Positions 5,482 through 47,735 of a stretch of DNA of 64,000 bases are shown piece by piece. Position numbers and translations under genes: made by a program. Location: NCBI GenBank assembly GCA_003402285.1, contig QFXG01000028.1, positions 45,422 to 109,421 on the forward strand, written 5' to 3'. The stretch is from Candidatus Nitrotoga sp. SPKER. Its GTDB lineage: Bacteria; Pseudomonadota; Gammaproteobacteria; Burkholderiales; Gallionellaceae. Under the pieces are notes generated by a model, which ran no database searches, was not told the DNA's origin, and worked only from the letters and a program-made list of their open reading frames with translations. Position 1 is the stretch's first letter. Each line of letters starts with the position of its first letter.

Positions 5482-8400
5482 GCAACACTGCAGGCGCAGC
5501 GATTAGAAAATTTACTGACATTTTCGTCGAACGTCCAGTTCTGGCAACCGTCATTAGTTTAGTGATACTGGTGCTGGGCTTACGCTCGCTGGCCTCATTG
5601 CCGATACTGCAATATCCTTACACCCAAAATGCAGTCGTCACCATCAGCACAGCGTATCCCGGCGCCGATGCCAATCTGGTAGCGAGTTTCATCACTACTC
5701 CACTGGAAAATGCCGTCGCTCAGGCCAACGGTATTGATTACATGACCTCCAGCAGCACGCAGGGAGTGAGCGCTATTAGTGCCAATCTTCGATTAAATTA
5801 TGACCCAAGCAATGCCTTAACCGAAATTAACACCAAGGTGAATGCGGTTCTTAATCAGCTGCCGCCTCAAGCACAAAAACCCACACTTTCCGTCAGCATT
5901 GGGCAGACCATCGATGCGATGTACATCGGTTTCTACAGCGATGTTCTCAAGCCTAACCAAGTCACTGACTATCTCGTGCGTTCCGTTCAAACCAAACTAC
6001 AAGCGATTGAAGGCGTACAAGTTGCCGAATTATTGGGCGCAAAAAATTTCGCCTTACGGGCATGGCTTGATCCACAGAAACTTGCCGCTGTTGGTCTCAC
6101 GGCTGCCGATATTTATAGTCTTTTGGCTGCCAACAACTTTCTCTCATCCAGCGGCCAATCCAAGGGACAAATGGTACAGATCAACTTGAATGCATCTACT
6201 GCGCTGCGGTCAGTAGATGAATTCAAGCAAATGGTCATCAAGCAACAAGGCAACTCGGTTGTGCGCTTAGCAGACGTAGCGAATGTTACTTTGGGCGCTG
6301 ATGACTATGACACCAGCGTGTCGTTTGACGGTAAAAAAGCGGTATACGTGGGAATTCAGGTTGCGCCCGCTGCCAATCTGCTGGATGTGATTGCTCGCGT
6401 ACGCAAAGTCATGCCTGAAATTCAGGCACAGCTACCGCAGGGTATGAATAGCAACATCGTTTATGACTCGACCAAATTCGTCAATTCGTCAATTAACGAG
6501 GTCGTTAAAACGCTGGTGGAAGCTGTTCTGATTGTCACAGCAGTGGTATTTGTTTTCCTGGGCTCGCTACGCTCGGTGCTCATTCCAGTGATTGCGATAC
6601 CCCTTTCCCTGATAGGCACTTTCTCAGTGATGCTGGCTTTGGGCTATTCCATCAACCTGCTCACACTCTTAGCGCTCGTACTTGCCATCGGGCTAGTGGT
6701 AGATGATGCCATCATCGTAGTAGAAAACGTAAATCGTCATCTGGAAGAAGGACTATCGCCTTTTGACTCAGCGGTGAAGGCGGCGCGTGAACTGGCTAAT
6801 CCTATTATTGCGATGACCATTGTGCTTGTTGCAGTCTATGTACCGATAGGCTTTATGAGTGGCCTCACTGGCGCACTGTTTACCGAATTTGCTTTTACGC
6901 TGGTCGGTGCTGTAACTATGTCAGCTGTGATCGCGCTGACACTTTCGCCGATGATGTGTTCGCGTCTCCTACGCTCGCCCAAGCGTGAGGGGGGTAACTG
7001 GCAAGATCGTTTAGAAATATGGTTGGATAAACAATTTGAACGGTTACACGTTCGATATGAAAAAACCCTACATGGCACACTCAATTTCGTCACAGTAATA
7101 GCCATATTCGCGTTAGTAATCATAGGCGGGATTTATTTTCTGTACACCACCTCGATGTCTGAACTCGCTCCGCAGGAAGACCAAGGTGTGCTGATTGCAG
7201 CCTCTTTTAACGCGCCCGATGCAACACTACAGCAACGAGAAATATTTGGTGAACAGATTCAGAAAATTTTCAAGGCCCACTCGGAAACAGATCACATTTT
7301 CCAGCTAAATATGCCGACACAGGTTATCACCGGCATGGTACTCAAGCCTTGGGATGAGCGTGCTAAAACCTCCATGCAACTACAGCCCCAAGTACAAAAA
7401 GAATTAGGGGAAATCGCAGGCACGCAGAATGCTCTTTTCCAGCCTCCTCCGCTGCCCGGTGCACGCGGATTGCCAATACAATTTGTGATTACTACTACAG
7501 AGCCATTCTCCAAGCTCTATGACGTATCCCAGAAATTTTTGCAAGAAGCTGAAAAAACGGGCGAATTTATTTTCGTACAATCAGATTTACGCATTGACCT
7601 ACCTCAGACTACGGTAGTAATTGATCGCAATATGGCGTCACAGCTTGGGCTAAATATGCAAGATATCGGCTCTGGCCTGTCTGCCATGCTGGGAGGTGGA
7701 TATGTAAACTATTTCGAGCTTGAGGGTCGGTCTTATAAAGTTATTCCTCAGGTTGCACAGCGTTTCCGCCTGAATACAGACCAACTCAAACACTATTATC
7801 TGCGTACCGCAAGCGGACAAATGGTACCGCTATCTACAGTAGCTCATCTGGAAAAAAGTACCGAACCAGAAACCATCAATCACTTCCAACAACAAAATAT
7901 GGCGACCATACAGGGAGTGGCCTTTCCCACTATTTCACAAGGTCAGGCACTGGAAAGACTTAAAACTTTAGCGCAAGAAACCTTACCGGCCGGATATAGC
8001 TACGACTATTCAGGCCCCTCACGACAATTTATACAAGAATCAGGCGGACTGTTACTTACCTTTTTCTTTGCTATTGTTATTATTTTCCTGGCACTTGCCG
8101 CTCAATTTGAAAGCTTCCGCGACCCTCTTATCATTTTAGTGTCTGTGCCCATGTCTATTGCAGGAGCATTAATTTTTATTAACCTGGGTATTGGGGGTAC
8201 CAAGCTTAATATTTACACTGAAGTTGGCTTGGTAACACTCATCGCCCTAATCTCAAAACATGGCATTTTGATTGTGGAATTCGCCAATAATTTGCAACAA
8301 ACAGGATTGAGCAAACGTGAGGCCATAGAGAAAGCTGCTGGTTTACGTCTACGCCCCATATTAATGACAACTGCTGCCATGGTACTGGGTGTTTTACCGC

Positions 8401-41536: not shown

Positions 41537-42433
41537 CTATGTATGACCGGATAAAGAACAATGATATTTGTCCAGCTCAATCTGAATAGTGACGTGTCCA
41601 ATGGTAAAGTTATCGTGCAACTCTTCCGTAACACGGCACAGAAACTCATTCCCTGGATGTCCGCCGCACATGACCAAATGAACGGTCAGTGCAATTTCTG
41701 AAGTACTCATCGCCCATACATGCAGATCATGTATTTCGATGACATTTGGCTGTGCTGTCAGATAATTTTTCACATTATCTAATGTGATTGATGCCGGCAC
41801 ACCGTCCAGAGAAAGATGTAAAGCCTGGCGTAACAAATCCCATGTACTCCACAATATCACTACAGCAATGACCAGGCTGATTGCAGGATCGAGCCAAGCC
41901 CAACCAGTCCAGATAAACATCGCACCTGCGATAACCACACCGAGTGAAACCAGCGCATCTGCCGCCATATGAAGAAAAGCACCACGCAGGTTAAGATCTT
42001 TTTTGTTGCCGGACATGAATAACCAAGCGGTGATGCCGTTGATCACTACTCCAATAGCAGCAACCAGCATGACGATGCCGCCCTGAATCGGCACCTGATG
42101 ACTGAATCTACCAACGGCTTCCCACACGATGCCGCCTATCGCAATCAGCAATATCATCGCATTAAACAATGCAGCAAGAATCGAGGCTCGCCCCAAGCCG
42201 TAAGTATGTTTCTGATTAGGTCGCAGCTGTGCCAGATATAAACCGCCATATGCCACAAGTAAACCGAGCACATCGCTCAGGTTGTGCCCGGCATCGGAGA
42301 GTAGTGCGAGCGAGTCGGCTTGCCAGCCGAAAATTGTTTCAACGACGACGAACATCACATTCAATGCAATGCCAATGACAAATGCTCGACCGTAGTTTGC
42401 AGTGTGGCTGTGCGAATGATGATGTGCTGTCAT
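41537..42433 (-). CDS. czcD: cation diffusion facilitator family metal efflux transporter
   Basis: His-rich N-terminus MTAHHHSHSH, SDAGHNLSD and HMAADA metal-site motifs, and a cytoplasmic C-terminal domain. Confidence 0.9.
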   Translation of the reverse strand: MTAHHHSHSHTANYGRAFVIGIALNVMFVVVETIFGWQADSLALLSDAGHNLSDVLGLLVAYGGLYLAQLRPNQKHTYGLGRASILAALFNAMILLIAIGGIVWEAVGRFSHQVPIQGGIVMLVAAIGVVINGITAWLFMSGNKKDLNLRGAFLHMAADALVSLGVVIAGAMFIWTGWAWLDPAISLVIAVVILWSTWDLLRQALHLSLDGVPASITLDNVKNYLTAQPNVIEIHDLHVWAMSTSEIALTVHLVMCGGHPGNEFLCRVTEELHDNFTIGHVTIQIELDKYHCSLSGHT

Positions 42434-42921
42434 GATATTCCTTAAAGAGCAGCGGTGACATGAACACTAGCAGAAAAATCTCCTGTAAACAATGGGCTAA
42501 CGCTAGCCCCTACCATAAACACAGTAGCTATATGTTGCGATCCAACTGTCGCATCACCCGTACTAAGCAATCGATTTTTTCGTAAGTGTGACGGATTCAA
42601 CATACCTCAAACACTTCTTTAGGTGATGCAAAGATGTTGCACGACATATCGGTGCGATATACTGCCAAACGCGCTAGCTATCAGAGCTAAATCCGCAAAT
42701 AACTTTAGCCCACTAAAACACTTCAAATATGACCGCTCTGCAAAAACTGCTGAAAACTTTTCGACAAACATCTGTCACAGAGCGGAAAAGCAGTGGAAAC
42801 AATGGGCAACCCGCGTTATTCGCTGGAACTGTTCATGCGCGTGGTGACGGTGAGCCTGGAAACGATGAAATTGTGAACAGCCTGTCAGCCCGGAAGCGGC
42901 ATCTGATTTGACGGGGGATGC

Positions 42922-43653
42922 ATGACTATCCAGATTGTTGAAATTCTCGACCGCTCGATTCAGGGCGTCACCAGGCCGTTCTATTGCCGCTGCGAAGATG
43001 GGCAAACTTACTTTGTCAAAGGCCGGGGGGCTGGCAGGCAAAGCTTGATTGCAGAGTACGTGGGTGGACGGCTGGCGCGCGCCTTTGACCTGCCGGTTCC
43101 TGATTTTGAAATCGTGGAAATTCCGCCCGAATTGATCCGGTGTTGCAGCCGGGGAGATGCAAACGAACTGGGTACGGGGCTGGTATTCGGCTCCAAGGCA
43201 TTGCCACATGTGCAGGAGTTTTCCTTTTCACATATTACCCAAGTGAATGAGTAAGCTCGCAAGGATGTGGTGCTGTTCGACTGGTGGGTGCATAACGCGG
43301 ATCGTACTTTGAGCGAGAAAGGCGGCAATCCAAATTTGCTGTGGGATCAAAAAAATTCGAGGTTGGCCGTTATTGACCACAATCAGGCATTCGACCCGGA
43401 CTTTGATTCGCTACAATTTGCGCAGACTCATGTATTCAATGGCAGCCTTTTGAATATCATAGATGATTTGGTGGAGCGCGATGTCTACCGCAATCGTTTG
43501 GCGGATGCAATTGTCGAATTCAATTCCGCTTGCGATAATGTCCCTCCAGAGTGGTGGTGGGAAGATGATGGAGTCCCAGCCAATTTCAACCGTGATGCAG
43601 CAAGTGAAACTCTCAACCGATTTACCGATGATATTTTTTGGAGGATAGCGTGA
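42922..43653 (+). pseudogene. HipA-like serine/threonine kinase interrupted by one in-frame TAA (43252-43254)
   Basis: ORFs 42922-43254 and 43267-43653 share one frame; the codons between them are TAA GCT CGC AAG GAT. Kinase-like motifs are WWVHNADR and VIDHNQAF (catalytic-loop D-x-H-x-x-N). Confidence 0.7.
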
Positions 43654-44480
43654 TGAATAAATACGCCTGTCAGTACGCTATCGTCCGCTTCCTACCTTAT
43701 TTGGAAACCGGCGAGTTTGCCAATGTGGGCATTGTGATGTTTTGCCCGGATGCCAGGTTATTCGAGTTCAGATTATTGCGGCATATCCGACGCATCACGT
43801 CATTTTTCGAGGAATTAGATGCAGGTATCTATCGCCGCGCCGCCAACGATTTCAAGCAAGAACTAAAACGCATCCATAACTGGCTTGATCCAAAACAAGA
43901 GAACCGGATAAATGCAGATTTGGCTCGTCATCTGTTTGCCGAGCTGACGCGCCCGCGCGAAGCCATGATGCGCTTTGATACGGTTCGCGTGGTGCTGGCC
44001 GACGATCCGGTACAGAAATTCGATGAGTTGTTCGGTCATTATGTGGAACGCAATTTTGCGACCAAAGCTTATCAAGAACAGTTGCTGGAAAAAAATGTGC
44101 GTAGGATTTTGACGGACGCAAAGCTGGACAAGCAATATCGCCCCGAGACATTGGGGGATGCTGCCACCTATCACACGCGCCTGCCCTTTGTGCATCGAAA
44201 GAACGGGCGCGCAGTGAAGGCGATTAAACCACTGCATCTGGCGCACGAAGACCCCGCACAAATCTACGATCACGGCTGGGCCTGGTTGGGAAAAGTGGAA
44301 AAATTGCGGGCTTTAAAATTATTGCCGGATCGAATTCTGTTCCCGGTGCAGAGGCCAACCGAAAATGATGGTAGGCGCTTTGAAATGTTTCAGGAAATTA
44401 CTCAAAAAATAGCCGCGAATGATGTAGTGGTCATACCCGATCAACAAACTCAAAAAATTATCGAGTTTGCTCAAGATTAA
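43653..44480 (+). CDS. DUF3037 domain protein
   Basis: N-terminus YACQYAIVRFLPYLETGEFANVGIVMFCP is characteristic of DUF3037. Its ATG overlaps the kinase stop (TGATG), with GGAGGA 7 nt upstream. The track ORF opens at 43638. Confidence 0.8.
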   Translation: MNKYACQYAIVRFLPYLETGEFANVGIVMFCPDARLFEFRLLRHIRRITSFFEELDAGIYRRAANDFKQELKRIHNWLDPKQENRINADLARHLFAELTRPREAMMRFDTVRVVLADDPVQKFDELFGHYVERNFATKAYQEQLLEKNVRRILTDAKLDKQYRPETLGDAATYHTRLPFVHRKNGRAVKAIKPLHLAHEDPAQIYDHGWAWLGKVEKLRALKLLPDRILFPVQRPTENDGRRFEMFQEITQKIAANDVVVIPDQQTQKIIEFAQD

Positions 44481-44499
44481 GTTGGGATGAGGCAATCAT

Positions 44500-45615
44500 A
44501 TGAAAATCGGAATACCCAAAGAAATCAAAGCAAATGAAAATCGGGTCGCATTGGTTCCATCCGGTGCAGAATCGCTTATTGCGGCTGGACATTCTGTGCT
44601 GGTCGAGGCAGGTGCTGGATTCGGTAGTGGCTTTAGTGACGAGCAGTATCTTGCAGTAGGCGCACGTATCGTCTCTGATGCCAACGTAATATGGGCGGAT
44701 GCCGATCTGATTGTTAAAGTTAAAGAGCCGATTGAGCCAGAGTGGCAGCACATCAAGCCTGGCCAAACACTGTTCACCTATTTTCATTTTTCCGCTAATG
44801 AAAAACTAACCCGAGCACATCTGGATTCTGGTGCAACTTGTATCGCTTATGAAACGATTGAATTGCCTTCACGTGAATTACCACTACTAACCCCCATGTC
44901 TGAAGTGGCCGGACGCATGGCCGTAAATGAAGGGGCCAAATATCTCGAAAAATTATATGGTGGACGGGGCGTTCTGTTAGGGGGTGTCCCCGGTGTGCCA
45001 CCCGCACATGTTGTCATCCTCGGCGGCGGTGTAGTGGGCATGAATGCCGCCAGAATGGCAGCAGGTCTGGGCGCAAGTGTTACCCTTCTTGACATTTCAC
45101 TGGAGCGGCTACGCCATCTGGGCGATGTCATGCCCGCTAACGTACAGTTGATTTTTTCCAATCGGCACAATTTACAGGAACAGATTGCCAGCGCCGACCT
45201 TGTCATCGGTGGGGTGTTAATCACCGGAGCCATTGCACCCAAACTGATACGCTACGATGATCTCAAGACCATGCGCAAAGGCTCAGTGATCGTAGATGTT
45301 GCAGTGGATCAAGGCGGTTGCATTGAAACAACCCATCCCACCACCCACGAGAATCCAATTTATGTAGTCGAGGGAATCATTCACTATGCTGTGGCAAACA
45401 TGCCCGGCGCCCTCCCCCGCACCTCTACGCTGGCGCTAACCAATGCGACTTTGCCTTATGTAATGCAAATAGCAAATAAAGGCTGGAAACAGGCACTAAA
45501 GGATAACGCTGCGTTGCGCAAAGGGCTCAATATCGTGAATGGAAAAATCACTCATCACGCAGTCGCCCAGGCATTCGCAATGCTGGCCTACGCGCCGGAA
45601 AATTTTCTCGATTAA
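44500..45615 (+). CDS. ald: alanine dehydrogenase
   Basis: MKIGIPKEIKANENRVALVPSG... and the Rossmann motif VVILGGGVVGMNAA. Confidence 0.95.
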   Translation: MKIGIPKEIKANENRVALVPSGAESLIAAGHSVLVEAGAGFGSGFSDEQYLAVGARIVSDANVIWADADLIVKVKEPIEPEWQHIKPGQTLFTYFHFSANEKLTRAHLDSGATCIAYETIELPSRELPLLTPMSEVAGRMAVNEGAKYLEKLYGGRGVLLGGVPGVPPAHVVILGGGVVGMNAARMAAGLGASVTLLDISLERLRHLGDVMPANVQLIFSNRHNLQEQIASADLVIGGVLITGAIAPKLIRYDDLKTMRKGSVIVDVAVDQGGCIETTHPTTHENPIYVVEGIIHYAVANMPGALPRTSTLALTNATLPYVMQIANKGWKQALKDNAALRKGLNIVNGKITHHAVAQAFAMLAYAPENFLD

Positions 45616-46442: not shown

Positions 46443-46520
46443 TCAAAACAGCGCAAGCTGAGGGTTCGAGTGCAATTTATGATACTTACCGTCTTGTTTC
46501 TTGACGTACTTGCCTATCAT
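46443..46520 (-). CDS. Candidate 25-codon upstream ORF translationally coupled to yafJ
   Basis: Hand translation gives MIGKYVKKQDGKYHKLHSNPQLALF. GGAG lies 5 nt before its ATG. Its TGA ends 3 nt before the yafJ ATG, which has no SD of its own. Confidence 0.35.
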   Translation of the reverse strand: MIGKYVKKQDGKYHKLHSNPQLALF

Positions 46521-46905
46521 GGTTTCTCCGTATTCCAAACCGGTTTTGCAAAAAAACTTCCTTCCAGATTCGCCGCCCACAACTGTTCGCTCATTCGGAA
46601 TGCTTACCCGCAAAGCGGCAGAGAATTTAACCCGAAGAAATTAATCAGTGAGCCTAACTACAGTAACTATTACCAGTACAAAGATAATGATAACTGAGCA
46701 TATCGCAAAAAATACCGGGATCCAGTCTTTCATAAAATACCTCTTTATTTGAAAGATGAATGATTCTAATAATAGATGAAAATAGCTTCAAGTTTTCCTG
46801 AAGATAGATAGGCTTCTATTTTTTAGACGGAGATGAAGTAGATTGCAAATCTTTAATGAGAATAAACGAGGTTTGTCAAATTACTTATGGATCGTCACAT
46901 TGTGT

Positions 46906-47118
46906 TTACAAATATAAATATTTAAGGCAGCGTGTGCATCTAACTTTACCCACGCCCTTTTCGTCATCAAGATGATTTAGGTGTTGAATTGCACCTTTCA
47001 AAAAACAAGTGAGACATGGTAAAGGTTTACCAAAACTCTTAAGGGCGCTACGCCATTCGGTCAAATATGCGTCCACATGTGTTTCTGCATCGCCCCGAAC
47101 TCGAATTTGTTGCAACAT
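46906..47118 (-). CDS. hypothetical small protein with CxxC...CxxC spacing
   Basis: 70-aa ORF containing PCLTC and CTRC. No clear SD, and no competing ORF. Confidence 0.3.
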   Translation of the reverse strand: MLQQIRVRGDAETHVDAYLTEWRSALKSFGKPLPCLTCFLKGAIQHLNHLDDEKGVGKVRCTRCLKYLYL

Positions 47119-47172
47119 TTCTTAAAGCATAAATTCAAGCGACATTACATCTCCTGTTCAAACGTTGACAGT

Positions 47173-47490
47173 TCATTTTGACTTGTTATTAGCAGGTATC
47201 TTTAAGGTGTAAGGATTGTTAGTCGGTGCGTTGCCATAAGGATTGCCATACGGTGAGTAGGGATCAGTAATTTTTGTTGGTGATTGACTCCCGCTATGCA
47301 TTCCATATCCATTGGACGAATAAGTCTGCTCACTCTTATTTTTAGTAAGGTTGCTCGTATGCCGTCCAGGCTGGCTATCCTTTGTCTCAGCTGCTGCATG
47401 CGCAGGACTTGTGAAATCTATATAGATGAGTGTCACTAGGACGGCAATTGCTGCGGCTTGTAATGACATTATTTTGATTTTTGATGACAT
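47173..47490 (-). CDS. hypothetical secreted low-complexity protein
   Basis: Signal-peptide-like AAIAVLVTLIYIDFTSPAHAAA, and a P/Y/G/N-rich tail (PYSPYGNPYGNAPTNNPY). Confidence 0.5.
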   Translation of the reverse strand: MSSKIKIMSLQAAAIAVLVTLIYIDFTSPAHAAAETKDSQPGRHTSNLTKNKSEQTYSSNGYGMHSGSQSPTKITDPYSPYGNPYGNAPTNNPYTLKIPANNKSK

Positions 47491-47735
47491 GGTAGTTTTC
47501 TTATTTATTTTTAATTTTTTCGATAATGAGAATTATCCTATTTATAGACAAGCAGAATAGCAAGCTTTAATAAAAATAAAAAGGAAGTTATGTATTTGAC
47601 TCCCTTACATTCTGTTACGTATACATCTCTGCCTGTCGTGCTTATTCCCAAATACGATAAGCAAAGCTGAATTTATGATTTTTACTATGTTCCTGGCGTC
47701 TATACACTTTACGACTGATTTGATTAAAGGATACT

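Follow-up and report, generated by a model that had tools for sequence, protein, structure and literature searches.

In the operon of Retron-Sda1, a HipA-like kinase and a DUF3037 protein (PDC-M66 in PADLOC) defend against phage Bas51 without need of the retron, and deletion of the kinase abolishes defence, while deletion of the DUF3037 gene is toxic (PMC12548924). The same architecture was validated as DS-6 in the DefensePredictor study and 'renamed HipAD'; a catalytic mutant of its kinase loses defence, and the interface between DS-6A and DS-6B was predicted by AlphaFold3 with an interface predicted template-modelling score (ipTM) of 0.76-0.79 (PMC13092281, which cites Brenes & Laub, Cell Host Microbe 2025, pmid 40409266). 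PDC stands for phage defence candidate, a label for systems whose role was predicted because their genes sit inside restriction-modification (R-M), BREX and DISARM operons (Payne et al., bioRxiv 10.1101/2024.01.29.577857). Here we analyse a kinase/DUF3037 pair in a stretch of 64,000 nucleotides of Candidatus Nitrotoga sp. SPKER (contig QFXG01000028.1, positions 45,422 to 109,421), hereafter the window, whose numbering is used throughout. The locus is very probably the remnant of a small decaying defence island that combined a Type ISP R-M gene with HipAD, and in which the toxin is dead and the antitoxin survives intact as an orphan. We regard it as a defence island of the usual sort in the course of decay, rather than as a novel type of module.

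The kinase is represented by two open reading frames (ORFs), 42922-43254 (110 aa) and 43267-43653 (128 aa), which lie in one frame and are parted by a single TAA followed by four sense codons, as an earlier first-pass annotation of this DNA had read them. Translated across the TAA, the product runs ...QVNE, stop, ARKDVVLFDWWVHNADR...VIDHNQAF... and also contains the motif WWVHNADR. This read-through protein matches Pfam HipA_2 (PF20613) with an E-value of 3.4e-89 over positions 1-238 of the 240 of the profile, and PADLOC PDC-M66A with an E-value of 4e-15; the joined ORFs are a full-length HipA_2-family kinase, far beyond chance. HipA_2 was the only family found, with no Pfam match to HipA_N or HipA_C in the kinase. 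The gene that follows encodes a full-length protein that matches DUF3037 (PF11236) in its N-terminal 131 residues (E 1.8e-25) and PDC-M66B over positions 1-263 of 281 (E 1e-26), and that retains the residues found invariant when 38 sequences were aligned. Both family assignments had been proposed from the letters and motifs, and the profile searches bear them out. NCBIfam gave no match to any of the three ORFs.

When phage genomes were searched by tblastn with the DUF3037 protein of the window, a match came from Escherichia phage PhiR5_1 (PV340545.1), whose annotation calls the gene in question 'HipD antitoxin' and the preceding one 'HipA toxin'. The two PhiR5_1 proteins, of 249 and 275 aa, are encoded with a 4-nt overlap between cI and kil, belong to HipA_2 (E 1e-76) and DUF3037, respectively, and match PDC-M66A and PDC-M66B. 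PhiR5_1 HipA aligns end to end with P0001, an intact metagenomic kinase that is 87% identical to ours (33% identity, E 5e-44), and HipD aligns with the DUF3037 protein of the window over 269 of 275 residues (26% identity, E 4e-33). By homology, then, the pair can be assigned to the HipAD/PDC-M66/DS-6 family. The suggestion that it constitutes a two-gene kinase module of toxin or defence type, with a partner other than HipB, agrees with these matches; its description as uncharacterised has to be withdrawn, given that the module is catalogued as PADLOC PDC-M66 and published as HipAD/DS-6 (PMC12548924; PMC13092281; annotation of PV340545.1).

The locus and its surroundings comprise the following features.

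41537..42433, reverse strand: left flank, a CzcD-like cation-diffusion-facilitator gene (298 aa; Pfam Cation_efflux and ZT_dimer on the identical gene at locus L087).
42729..42789, forward strand: 5' remnant of a Type ISP R-M gene, start codon and about 20 codons (MTALQKLLKTFRQTSVTER), matching the ISP N-terminus in L001 and L002.
42790..42921, forward strand: 3' remnant of the Type ISP R-M gene, identified by alignment and by translations that match the ISP C-terminus.
42922..43653, forward strand: HipA_2-family kinase pseudogene (HipAD toxin, PDC-M66A), 243 codons with one in-frame TAA (Pfam, PADLOC).
43252..43254, forward strand: the premature TAA, codon 111, Gln in relatives.
43640..43645, forward strand: GGAGGA Shine-Dalgarno sequence of the DUF3037 gene, within the kinase 3' end, read from the sequence.
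43653..44480, forward strand: intact DUF3037/HipD-type gene (275 aa, PDC-M66B), the presumed antitoxin (Pfam, PADLOC).
44500..45615, forward strand: right flank, an alanine dehydrogenase gene (371 aa; Pfam AlaDh_PNT_N and AlaDh_PNT_C on the identical gene at L087).

The TGA of the kinase (43651-43653) and the ATG of the DUF3037 gene (43653-43655) have one A in common (TGATG), and the GGAGGA stands 7 nt before that ATG, an arrangement already recognised in the first-pass annotation and confirmed here. The czcD-like and alanine dehydrogenase (ald) genes are outside the module. The G+C content of the pair is 0.47-0.56, with no clear foreign signature, and no second copy of either the kinase or the DUF3037 gene was found within the 64-kb window.

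The premature stop was found in no homologue of the kinase: the frame is uninterrupted in all of the best 120 of 543, most of which measure 242-250 aa, with a few shorter partial or longer calls. Codon 111 specifies Gln in Candidatus Nitrotoga sp. LAW (L001), in a Nitrosomonadales metagenome-assembled genome (MAG; L002), in Candidatus Nitrotoga sp. HW29 (L022) and in the metagenomic P0001 (L081), and among 16 aligned homologues 10 have Q and 3 have E at this position. Since Gln is found in all the closest genomes, the ancestral codon was CAA, and a single C-to-T transition produced TAA, in agreement with the earlier claim that one nonsense codon knocked out the kinase. The codon after the stop is altered as well (V112A). 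An independent assembly (Logan) of run SRR7085473 does not differ from the window over 6828 bp, TAA included, and carries the exact DUF3037 protein; an assembler artefact is therefore excluded. The stop lies upstream of the invariant residues D127, R128, N136, N138, D152 and N154, so that the toxin as predicted from the gene is cut after 110 residues, ahead of every catalytic-loop residue, and an intact, catalytically competent kinase is not present. Judged by its sequence, the locus would thus be a degenerate member of HipAD and not a working system. We also weighed recoding or read-through of the TAA and dismissed it, given that the stop occurs in no homologue, that no signal for it is evident and that TAA is not known to be recoded in bacteria that use translation table 11.

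The fold of the kinase was read from the intact homologue P0001 and not from the broken copy of the window. Searches on AlphaFold2 models replaced sequence-profile searches of the kinase and DUF3037 families against PDB sequences, which gave nothing meaningful. The P0001 model has a predicted local distance difference test score (pLDDT) of 92.8 and a predicted template-modelling score (pTM) of 0.90, and Foldseek matched it to protein-kinase-like folds, namely PI4KII alpha/beta, CotH, CtkA, Fam20C, HipA (4pu5, 3tpt, 3dnt) and HipT, with E-values of 2e-5 to 3e-3 and TM-scores of 0.4-0.56. In two alignments, the invariant residues include K33 (YFVKG) and E45 before the stop, with the Gly-rich loop also N-terminal of it, and after it residues of HNADR (D127-R128), GGNPNLLW (N136/N138) and IDHNQAF (D152/N154). 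The motifs of PI4KII would make HNADR the catalytic loop and IDHN the DFG equivalent. On this basis and from conservation, HNADR...N is more likely the catalytic loop and IDHNQAF the Mg-binding, DFG-equivalent motif; VIDHNQAF, which had been taken for the catalytic-loop pattern, is indeed there, and it is its role that probably needs reassigning.

Codon changes specific to the window lineage are distributed very differently between the two genes, with 2 synonymous and 9 nonsynonymous changes in the kinase (V3I, A29T, G56D, W74C, Q111 to stop, V112A, H160D, G181D and F202S) versus 13 and 4 in the DUF3037 gene (Fisher p = 0.006). Pairwise ratios of nonsynonymous to synonymous divergence (dN/dS) against the Nitrotoga relatives are 0.39-0.61 for the kinase and 0.08-0.18 for DUF3037, and about 0.1 for both genes on the long branch to L081. 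These patterns suggest that the DUF3037 gene is still under purifying selection. The synonymous divergence (dS) of the kinase between the window and L001, L002 and L022 (0.04-0.08) was also seen to be about half that of DUF3037 (0.14-0.18), on small counts; recombination or codon constraint are possible causes.

The region immediately upstream of the kinase tells of a second loss. Homology between the window and L001 or L002 breaks at 42789/42790, where extra DNA of 883 bp is found in L001 and of 4.7 kb in L002. In the ORF lists, this DNA is a large gene that begins MTALQKLLETFRQASVTEREKGTYFEE... and ends ...AVETMGNPRYPLELFMRVATVSLETIKIVNSLPALDIYGANAGSGT and a stop, about 15 nt before the kinase ATG. 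The 5' remnant of the window, MTALQKLLKTFRQTSVTER, matches the ISP N-terminus in L001 and L002 (MTALQKLLETFRQASVTEREK...), that of L081 (...LLNNFRNAAVTEREK) being similar. The 3' remnant reads AVETMGNPRYSLELFMRVVTVSLETMKL up to a stop in a frame other than that of the 5' remnant, has suffered further deletions of 23 bp and 1 bp, and in translation matches the ISP C-terminus ...AVETMGNPRYPLELFMRVATVSLETIKIVNSLPALDIYG... of L002, L001 and L081. The 60-aa ORF at 42729-42911 consequently consists of the first ~20 ISP codons and the last ~120 nt of the gene, joined out of frame; about 20 N-terminal and 28 C-terminal ISP codons survive in the window, some 180 nt in all. A third component of the module had been suspected in this ORF, a candidate that we rejected, the alignment and translations revealing an out-of-frame deletion scar; it ends 10 nt before the kinase ATG, and not 11 nt as previously counted. 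The pair had also been said to stand alone between czcD and ald: Pfam confirms the two flanks, whereas 42729-42921 proves to be an R-M scar.

The identity of the lost gene was read from relatives. Directly upstream of an 85%-identical pair in contigs L081-L084 there is a near-complete ORF of 1548 aa with the domains Mrr_cat_2, ResIII, Helicase_C, ISP_coupler, N6_Mtase and Type_ISP_C, which matches PADLOC REase_MTase_IIG over positions 2-1558 of 1646. The upstream gene is accordingly predicted to have encoded a single-polypeptide Type ISP R-M enzyme of about 1640 aa; full or partial copies occur in the relatives, and a complete ~1600-aa enzyme is not present in the window. The end-points of the deletion differ among lineages: the window has the out-of-frame scar 42729-42921, HW29 an in-frame fusion RNEATY|VVTVSLETMK (L022 5776-5985), and LAW retains 883 bp (L001 4901-5985). 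Given three different end-points, the R-M gene was lost at least three times independently in the clade.

Some irregularities were also observed in the relatives that carry more of the R-M gene. The ISP ORF of L081 (1381-6027) and L084 (1393-6039) ends at 1548 aa, about 95 codons below the ~1643 aa of L002, and the missing C-terminus forms a separate ORF of 62 or 103 aa (L081 7674-7985; L084 6117-6305), the 103-aa ORF of L081 matching REase_MTase_IIG at positions 1552-1641 of 1646, so that in these contigs, as well, the R-M gene is broken. In L081 (6028-8000), and likewise in L082 and L083, an ORF of 437 aa is inserted between the ISP gene and the kinase, an insert that L084 (6040-6320) does not have. 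This ORF has no Pfam family and a weak ZorA-like PADLOC match (2.6e-4), and the insert is bordered by a direct duplication of ~90 bp of the ISP 3' end (6153-6242, 7845-7934); it has the appearance of a cassette acquired at the junction where the window has its deletion. In the long-read MAG L002 (6700-6735), the kinase 3' end is frameshifted (...DDIFGG and a stop), the DUF3037 start is ATA and the ISP gene is in several ORFs, probably homopolymer assembly errors and not biology.

To place the locus in a wider context, one genome per species was scanned, giving 80 loci. The closest are those of LAW, the Nitrosomonadales MAG and HW29, with 93-94% protein identity, and blastn found all three syntenic with the window (czcD-pair-ald). 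By tblastn, the DUF3037 gene starts 0-45 nt after the kinase in 79 of the 80 loci, the exception being a contig that ends at the kinase; the co-occurrence that the first-pass annotation had anticipated is thus conserved. Hosts include Beta- and Gammaproteobacteria, Bacteroidota, Acidobacteriota and Campylobacterota, and the pair was also found on 22 plasmids (e.g. Pseudomonas syringae/amygdali and Vibrio) and in 3 phage records. When the two ORFs closest upstream of the pair were taken from each of 47 genomes, 94 proteins in all, the top families were the Type I HsdS specificity subunit (9), N6_Mtase (6), Eco57I (6), ResIII (5), DEAD (5) and HsdM_N (3). Embedding in or adjacency to R-M genes, the commonest upstream neighbours, is the dominant recognisable context of the pair, as expected for a PDC, and agrees with the defence surroundings that had been predicted.

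No further case of a nonsense-dead kinase beside an intact DUF3037 gene was found in the 80-genome survey, a screen that did not flag the frameshift at the kinase 3' end of L002; at L016 the kinase is N-terminally truncated and the DUF3037 gene is disrupted too. In the opposite configuration, the DUF3037 gene contains an in-frame stop or frameshift beside an apparently intact kinase at the MAG loci L012, L016, L035 and L063. If DUF3037 is an essential antitoxin, such disruption should be lethal, and these cases may reflect assembly errors or kinases that are already inactive.

The AlphaFold2 model of the DUF3037 protein of the window (pLDDT 84.5, pTM 0.55) comprises an N-terminal part, the DUF3037 domain, with a three-stranded sheet and helices, and a better predicted C-terminal half (residues ~138-275) with the order alpha-beta-beta-beta-alpha-beta-alpha-beta-alpha. 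Foldseek found no strong match to this model in the PDB (best E 0.011). The weak hits are recurrently restriction-endonuclease-like, including R2 RLE, BstEII, SfsA, Hef/XPF, EcoO109I, DdmD and cap-snatching endonucleases, and in the viral library BFVD two unnamed full-length matches (E 8e-10 and 1e-8) are followed by a 'Restriction endonuclease' (E 1.5e-3) and PD-(D/E)xK proteins. We see no D...(D/E)xK motif of canonical form in the positions that are invariant in the DUF3037 alignment, and if the modelled fold is assigned correctly, the C-terminal half is probably non-catalytic. A helix-turn-helix (HTH) was found neither as a Pfam family match in the DUF3037 protein nor in the secondary structure of its model.

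Taken together, the results make the following history very probable. Between czcD and ald, the original island would have consisted of a Type ISP gene of ~1640 aa and, ~15 nt downstream, the HipAD pair. When intact, as the literature describes it, the DUF3037 protein (HipD) would bind and neutralise the HipA_2 kinase in a type II-like toxin-antitoxin arrangement, until phage infection frees the kinase, whose phosphorylation of a target would arrest the cell or block the phage. In the window, all but ~180 nt of the Type ISP gene has been deleted, leaving the out-of-frame fusion, and the change of CAA to TAA at codon 111 would end translation before the catalytic loop and the Mg-binding Asp, with loss of both toxin and defence. 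The DUF3037 gene, having its own Shine-Dalgarno sequence and being under purifying selection, would persist as an orphan antitoxin. Its continued expression and usefulness we infer, and transcription may start upstream of 42729, in what survives of the promoter region of the Type ISP gene. The nonsense codon had previously been put down to counter-selection against a toxic kinase, which is possible; general decay of the island explains the data equally well.

The most serious competitor of this history, though we hold it somewhat less probable than not to be correct, is that the whole island, DUF3037 included, is non-functional debris on the way to loss, too little time having passed since the death of the kinase for the second gene to show it. 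The adjoining Type ISP gene was lost independently in three lineages, which shows the island to be dispensable in the clade; only ~17 lineage-specific changes, moreover, are available for the DUF3037 gene. Against this stand the 13:4 ratio of synonymous to nonsynonymous changes of that gene (dN/dS near 0.1), as opposed to 2:9 in the adjacent kinase over the same period, and the retention of its own Shine-Dalgarno sequence and start codon. It is quite unlikely, in our estimate, that the DUF3037 gene is kept by selection for a role of its own, as an anti-addiction or immunity factor against HipA_2 kinases of phages and plasmids or by virtue of its restriction-endonuclease-like C-terminal half; equally so that, as a separate matter, HipAD and Type ISP once formed a single co-transcribed, two-layer operon. 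The gap between HipAD and Type ISP is only ~15 nt in two unrelated genomic contexts.

Two further readings would spare the kinase. That the TAA arose in sequencing or consensus calling, or belongs to a minority variant, while the organism has an intact and working HipAD, seems very improbable: it is a single-base difference, CAA to TAA, in one genome only, and the 110-aa fragment is on record from the NCBI genome only, but the Logan assembly agrees with the window, stop included, and both the V112A change next to the stop and the excess of nonsynonymous changes are expected of a real pseudogene. We give hardly any credence to a kinase that works as two polypeptides by re-initiation at the GTG codons 43267 or 43270, in the manner of the split HipS/HipT of HipBST. 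An AAGGA just upstream of GTG 43270, the retention of all catalytic-loop residues by the second ORF and the existence of split HipA-type kinases (the HipS-HipT structure 8ezr is among the fold matches) would fit such a scheme. The split, however, falls inside the kinase core, with the catalytic loop on one side and K33, E45 and the Gly-rich loop on the other, which is not how HipS/HipT are divided; it has no counterpart among the best 120 of 543 homologues or the 80 genome loci, and the nonsynonymous excess argues for relaxed constraint.

Several observations weigh against a dead toxin with a surviving orphan antitoxin, the reading that we favour. The SRR7085473 assembly probably shares reads with the deposited genome, so that it speaks against an assembler error but not against an artefact at the level of the reads or a minority variant. 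The signal of relaxed selection is built on small counts, and the intact kinases of sister lineages also have raised dN/dS (0.25-0.51); fast evolution of the kinase in this clade could therefore pre-date the stop. The DUF3037 gene could serve a HipA_2 kinase elsewhere in the genome and would then be an orphan in name only. A promoter and terminator scan of 42300-44700 gave no consensus matches above shuffled sequence and hence no promoter for a remnant operon. Finally, toxicity and defence are extrapolated to the pair of the window from homologues with 26-33% identity.

As to other possible regulatory elements, the short repeats upstream of the pair include no convincing operator. A sigma-70-like sequence, TTGTCG-17-GATAAT with an upstream TG, was noticed at 43511-43539 in the 3' region of the kinase, ~115 nt before the DUF3037 start, and could be an internal antitoxin promoter; the count of such matches is not above chance, and this one is also constrained by the conserved coding motif ACDNVP. 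Beyond the right flank, an AT-rich stretch of ~1.2 kb (46447-47638) has a G+C content of 0.35-0.40 versus ~0.47-0.52 in its surroundings, is missing from LAW and L002 and partial in HW29, and contains small ORFs only, among them one of 105 aa (47173-47490, reverse strand) with a signal-peptide-like N-terminus.

The main value of these results is a correction: a seemingly unstudied gene pair belongs to the HipAD anti-phage toxin-antitoxin system, described in 2024-2026, and this copy of it appears to be dead. The primary HipAD paper is reportedly that of Brenes and Laub. The locus also offers a natural example of the erosion of a defence island, in which three sister lineages each lost the R-M gene by a deletion of their own, a nonsense codon struck the toxin, and the antitoxin survived under purifying selection; loss of toxin before antitoxin is the order expected for toxin-antitoxin modules. 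In addition, environmental Betaproteobacteria are seen here to have HipAD joined onto R-M genes of Type ISP and Type I, beyond the E. coli prophage setting of its characterisation. What interest remains is in how such an island decays in nature and in a role that the orphan HipD may have.

Compared with the described HipAD systems, the pair of the window has the same two Pfam families, the same gene order, an overlapping stop and start and closely similar sizes (243 and 275 versus 249 and 275 aa in PhiR5_1). It differs in that the kinase is a pseudogene, and in that the locus is chromosomal, in a nitrite-oxidising betaproteobacterium and beside a Type ISP scar, whereas the PhiR5_1 pair, only 26-33% identical, is placed between cI and kil in a lambdoid prophage. 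Pfam hidden Markov models, moreover, did not detect in any of 38 members of the subfamily of the window the DUF1829 domain that is reported for DS-6B. With the canonical HipBA of E. coli it would share a protein-kinase-like toxin of HipA-related fold (4pu5, 3tpt, 3dnt, as modelled), presumably neutralised by a co-operonic protein partner. Here, however, the kinase is of the HipA_2 family and has 243 aa, its partner is encoded downstream instead of upstream and has no HTH flagged, and the ORF found upstream is the R-M scar and not the HTH antitoxin HipB. The 5' and 3' ends of that scar are collinear with the nuclease-helicase-methyltransferase gene of the relatives, which is of the Type ISP (LlaGI/LlaBIII-like) kind, although the remnants are out of frame with each other and no enzyme can be made from them. 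In comparison with the embedded defence genes of Payne et al., the host R-M gene has itself been deleted in the window, whereas the R-M context is the same, with a Type ISP enzyme as the partner in the Nitrotoga clade.

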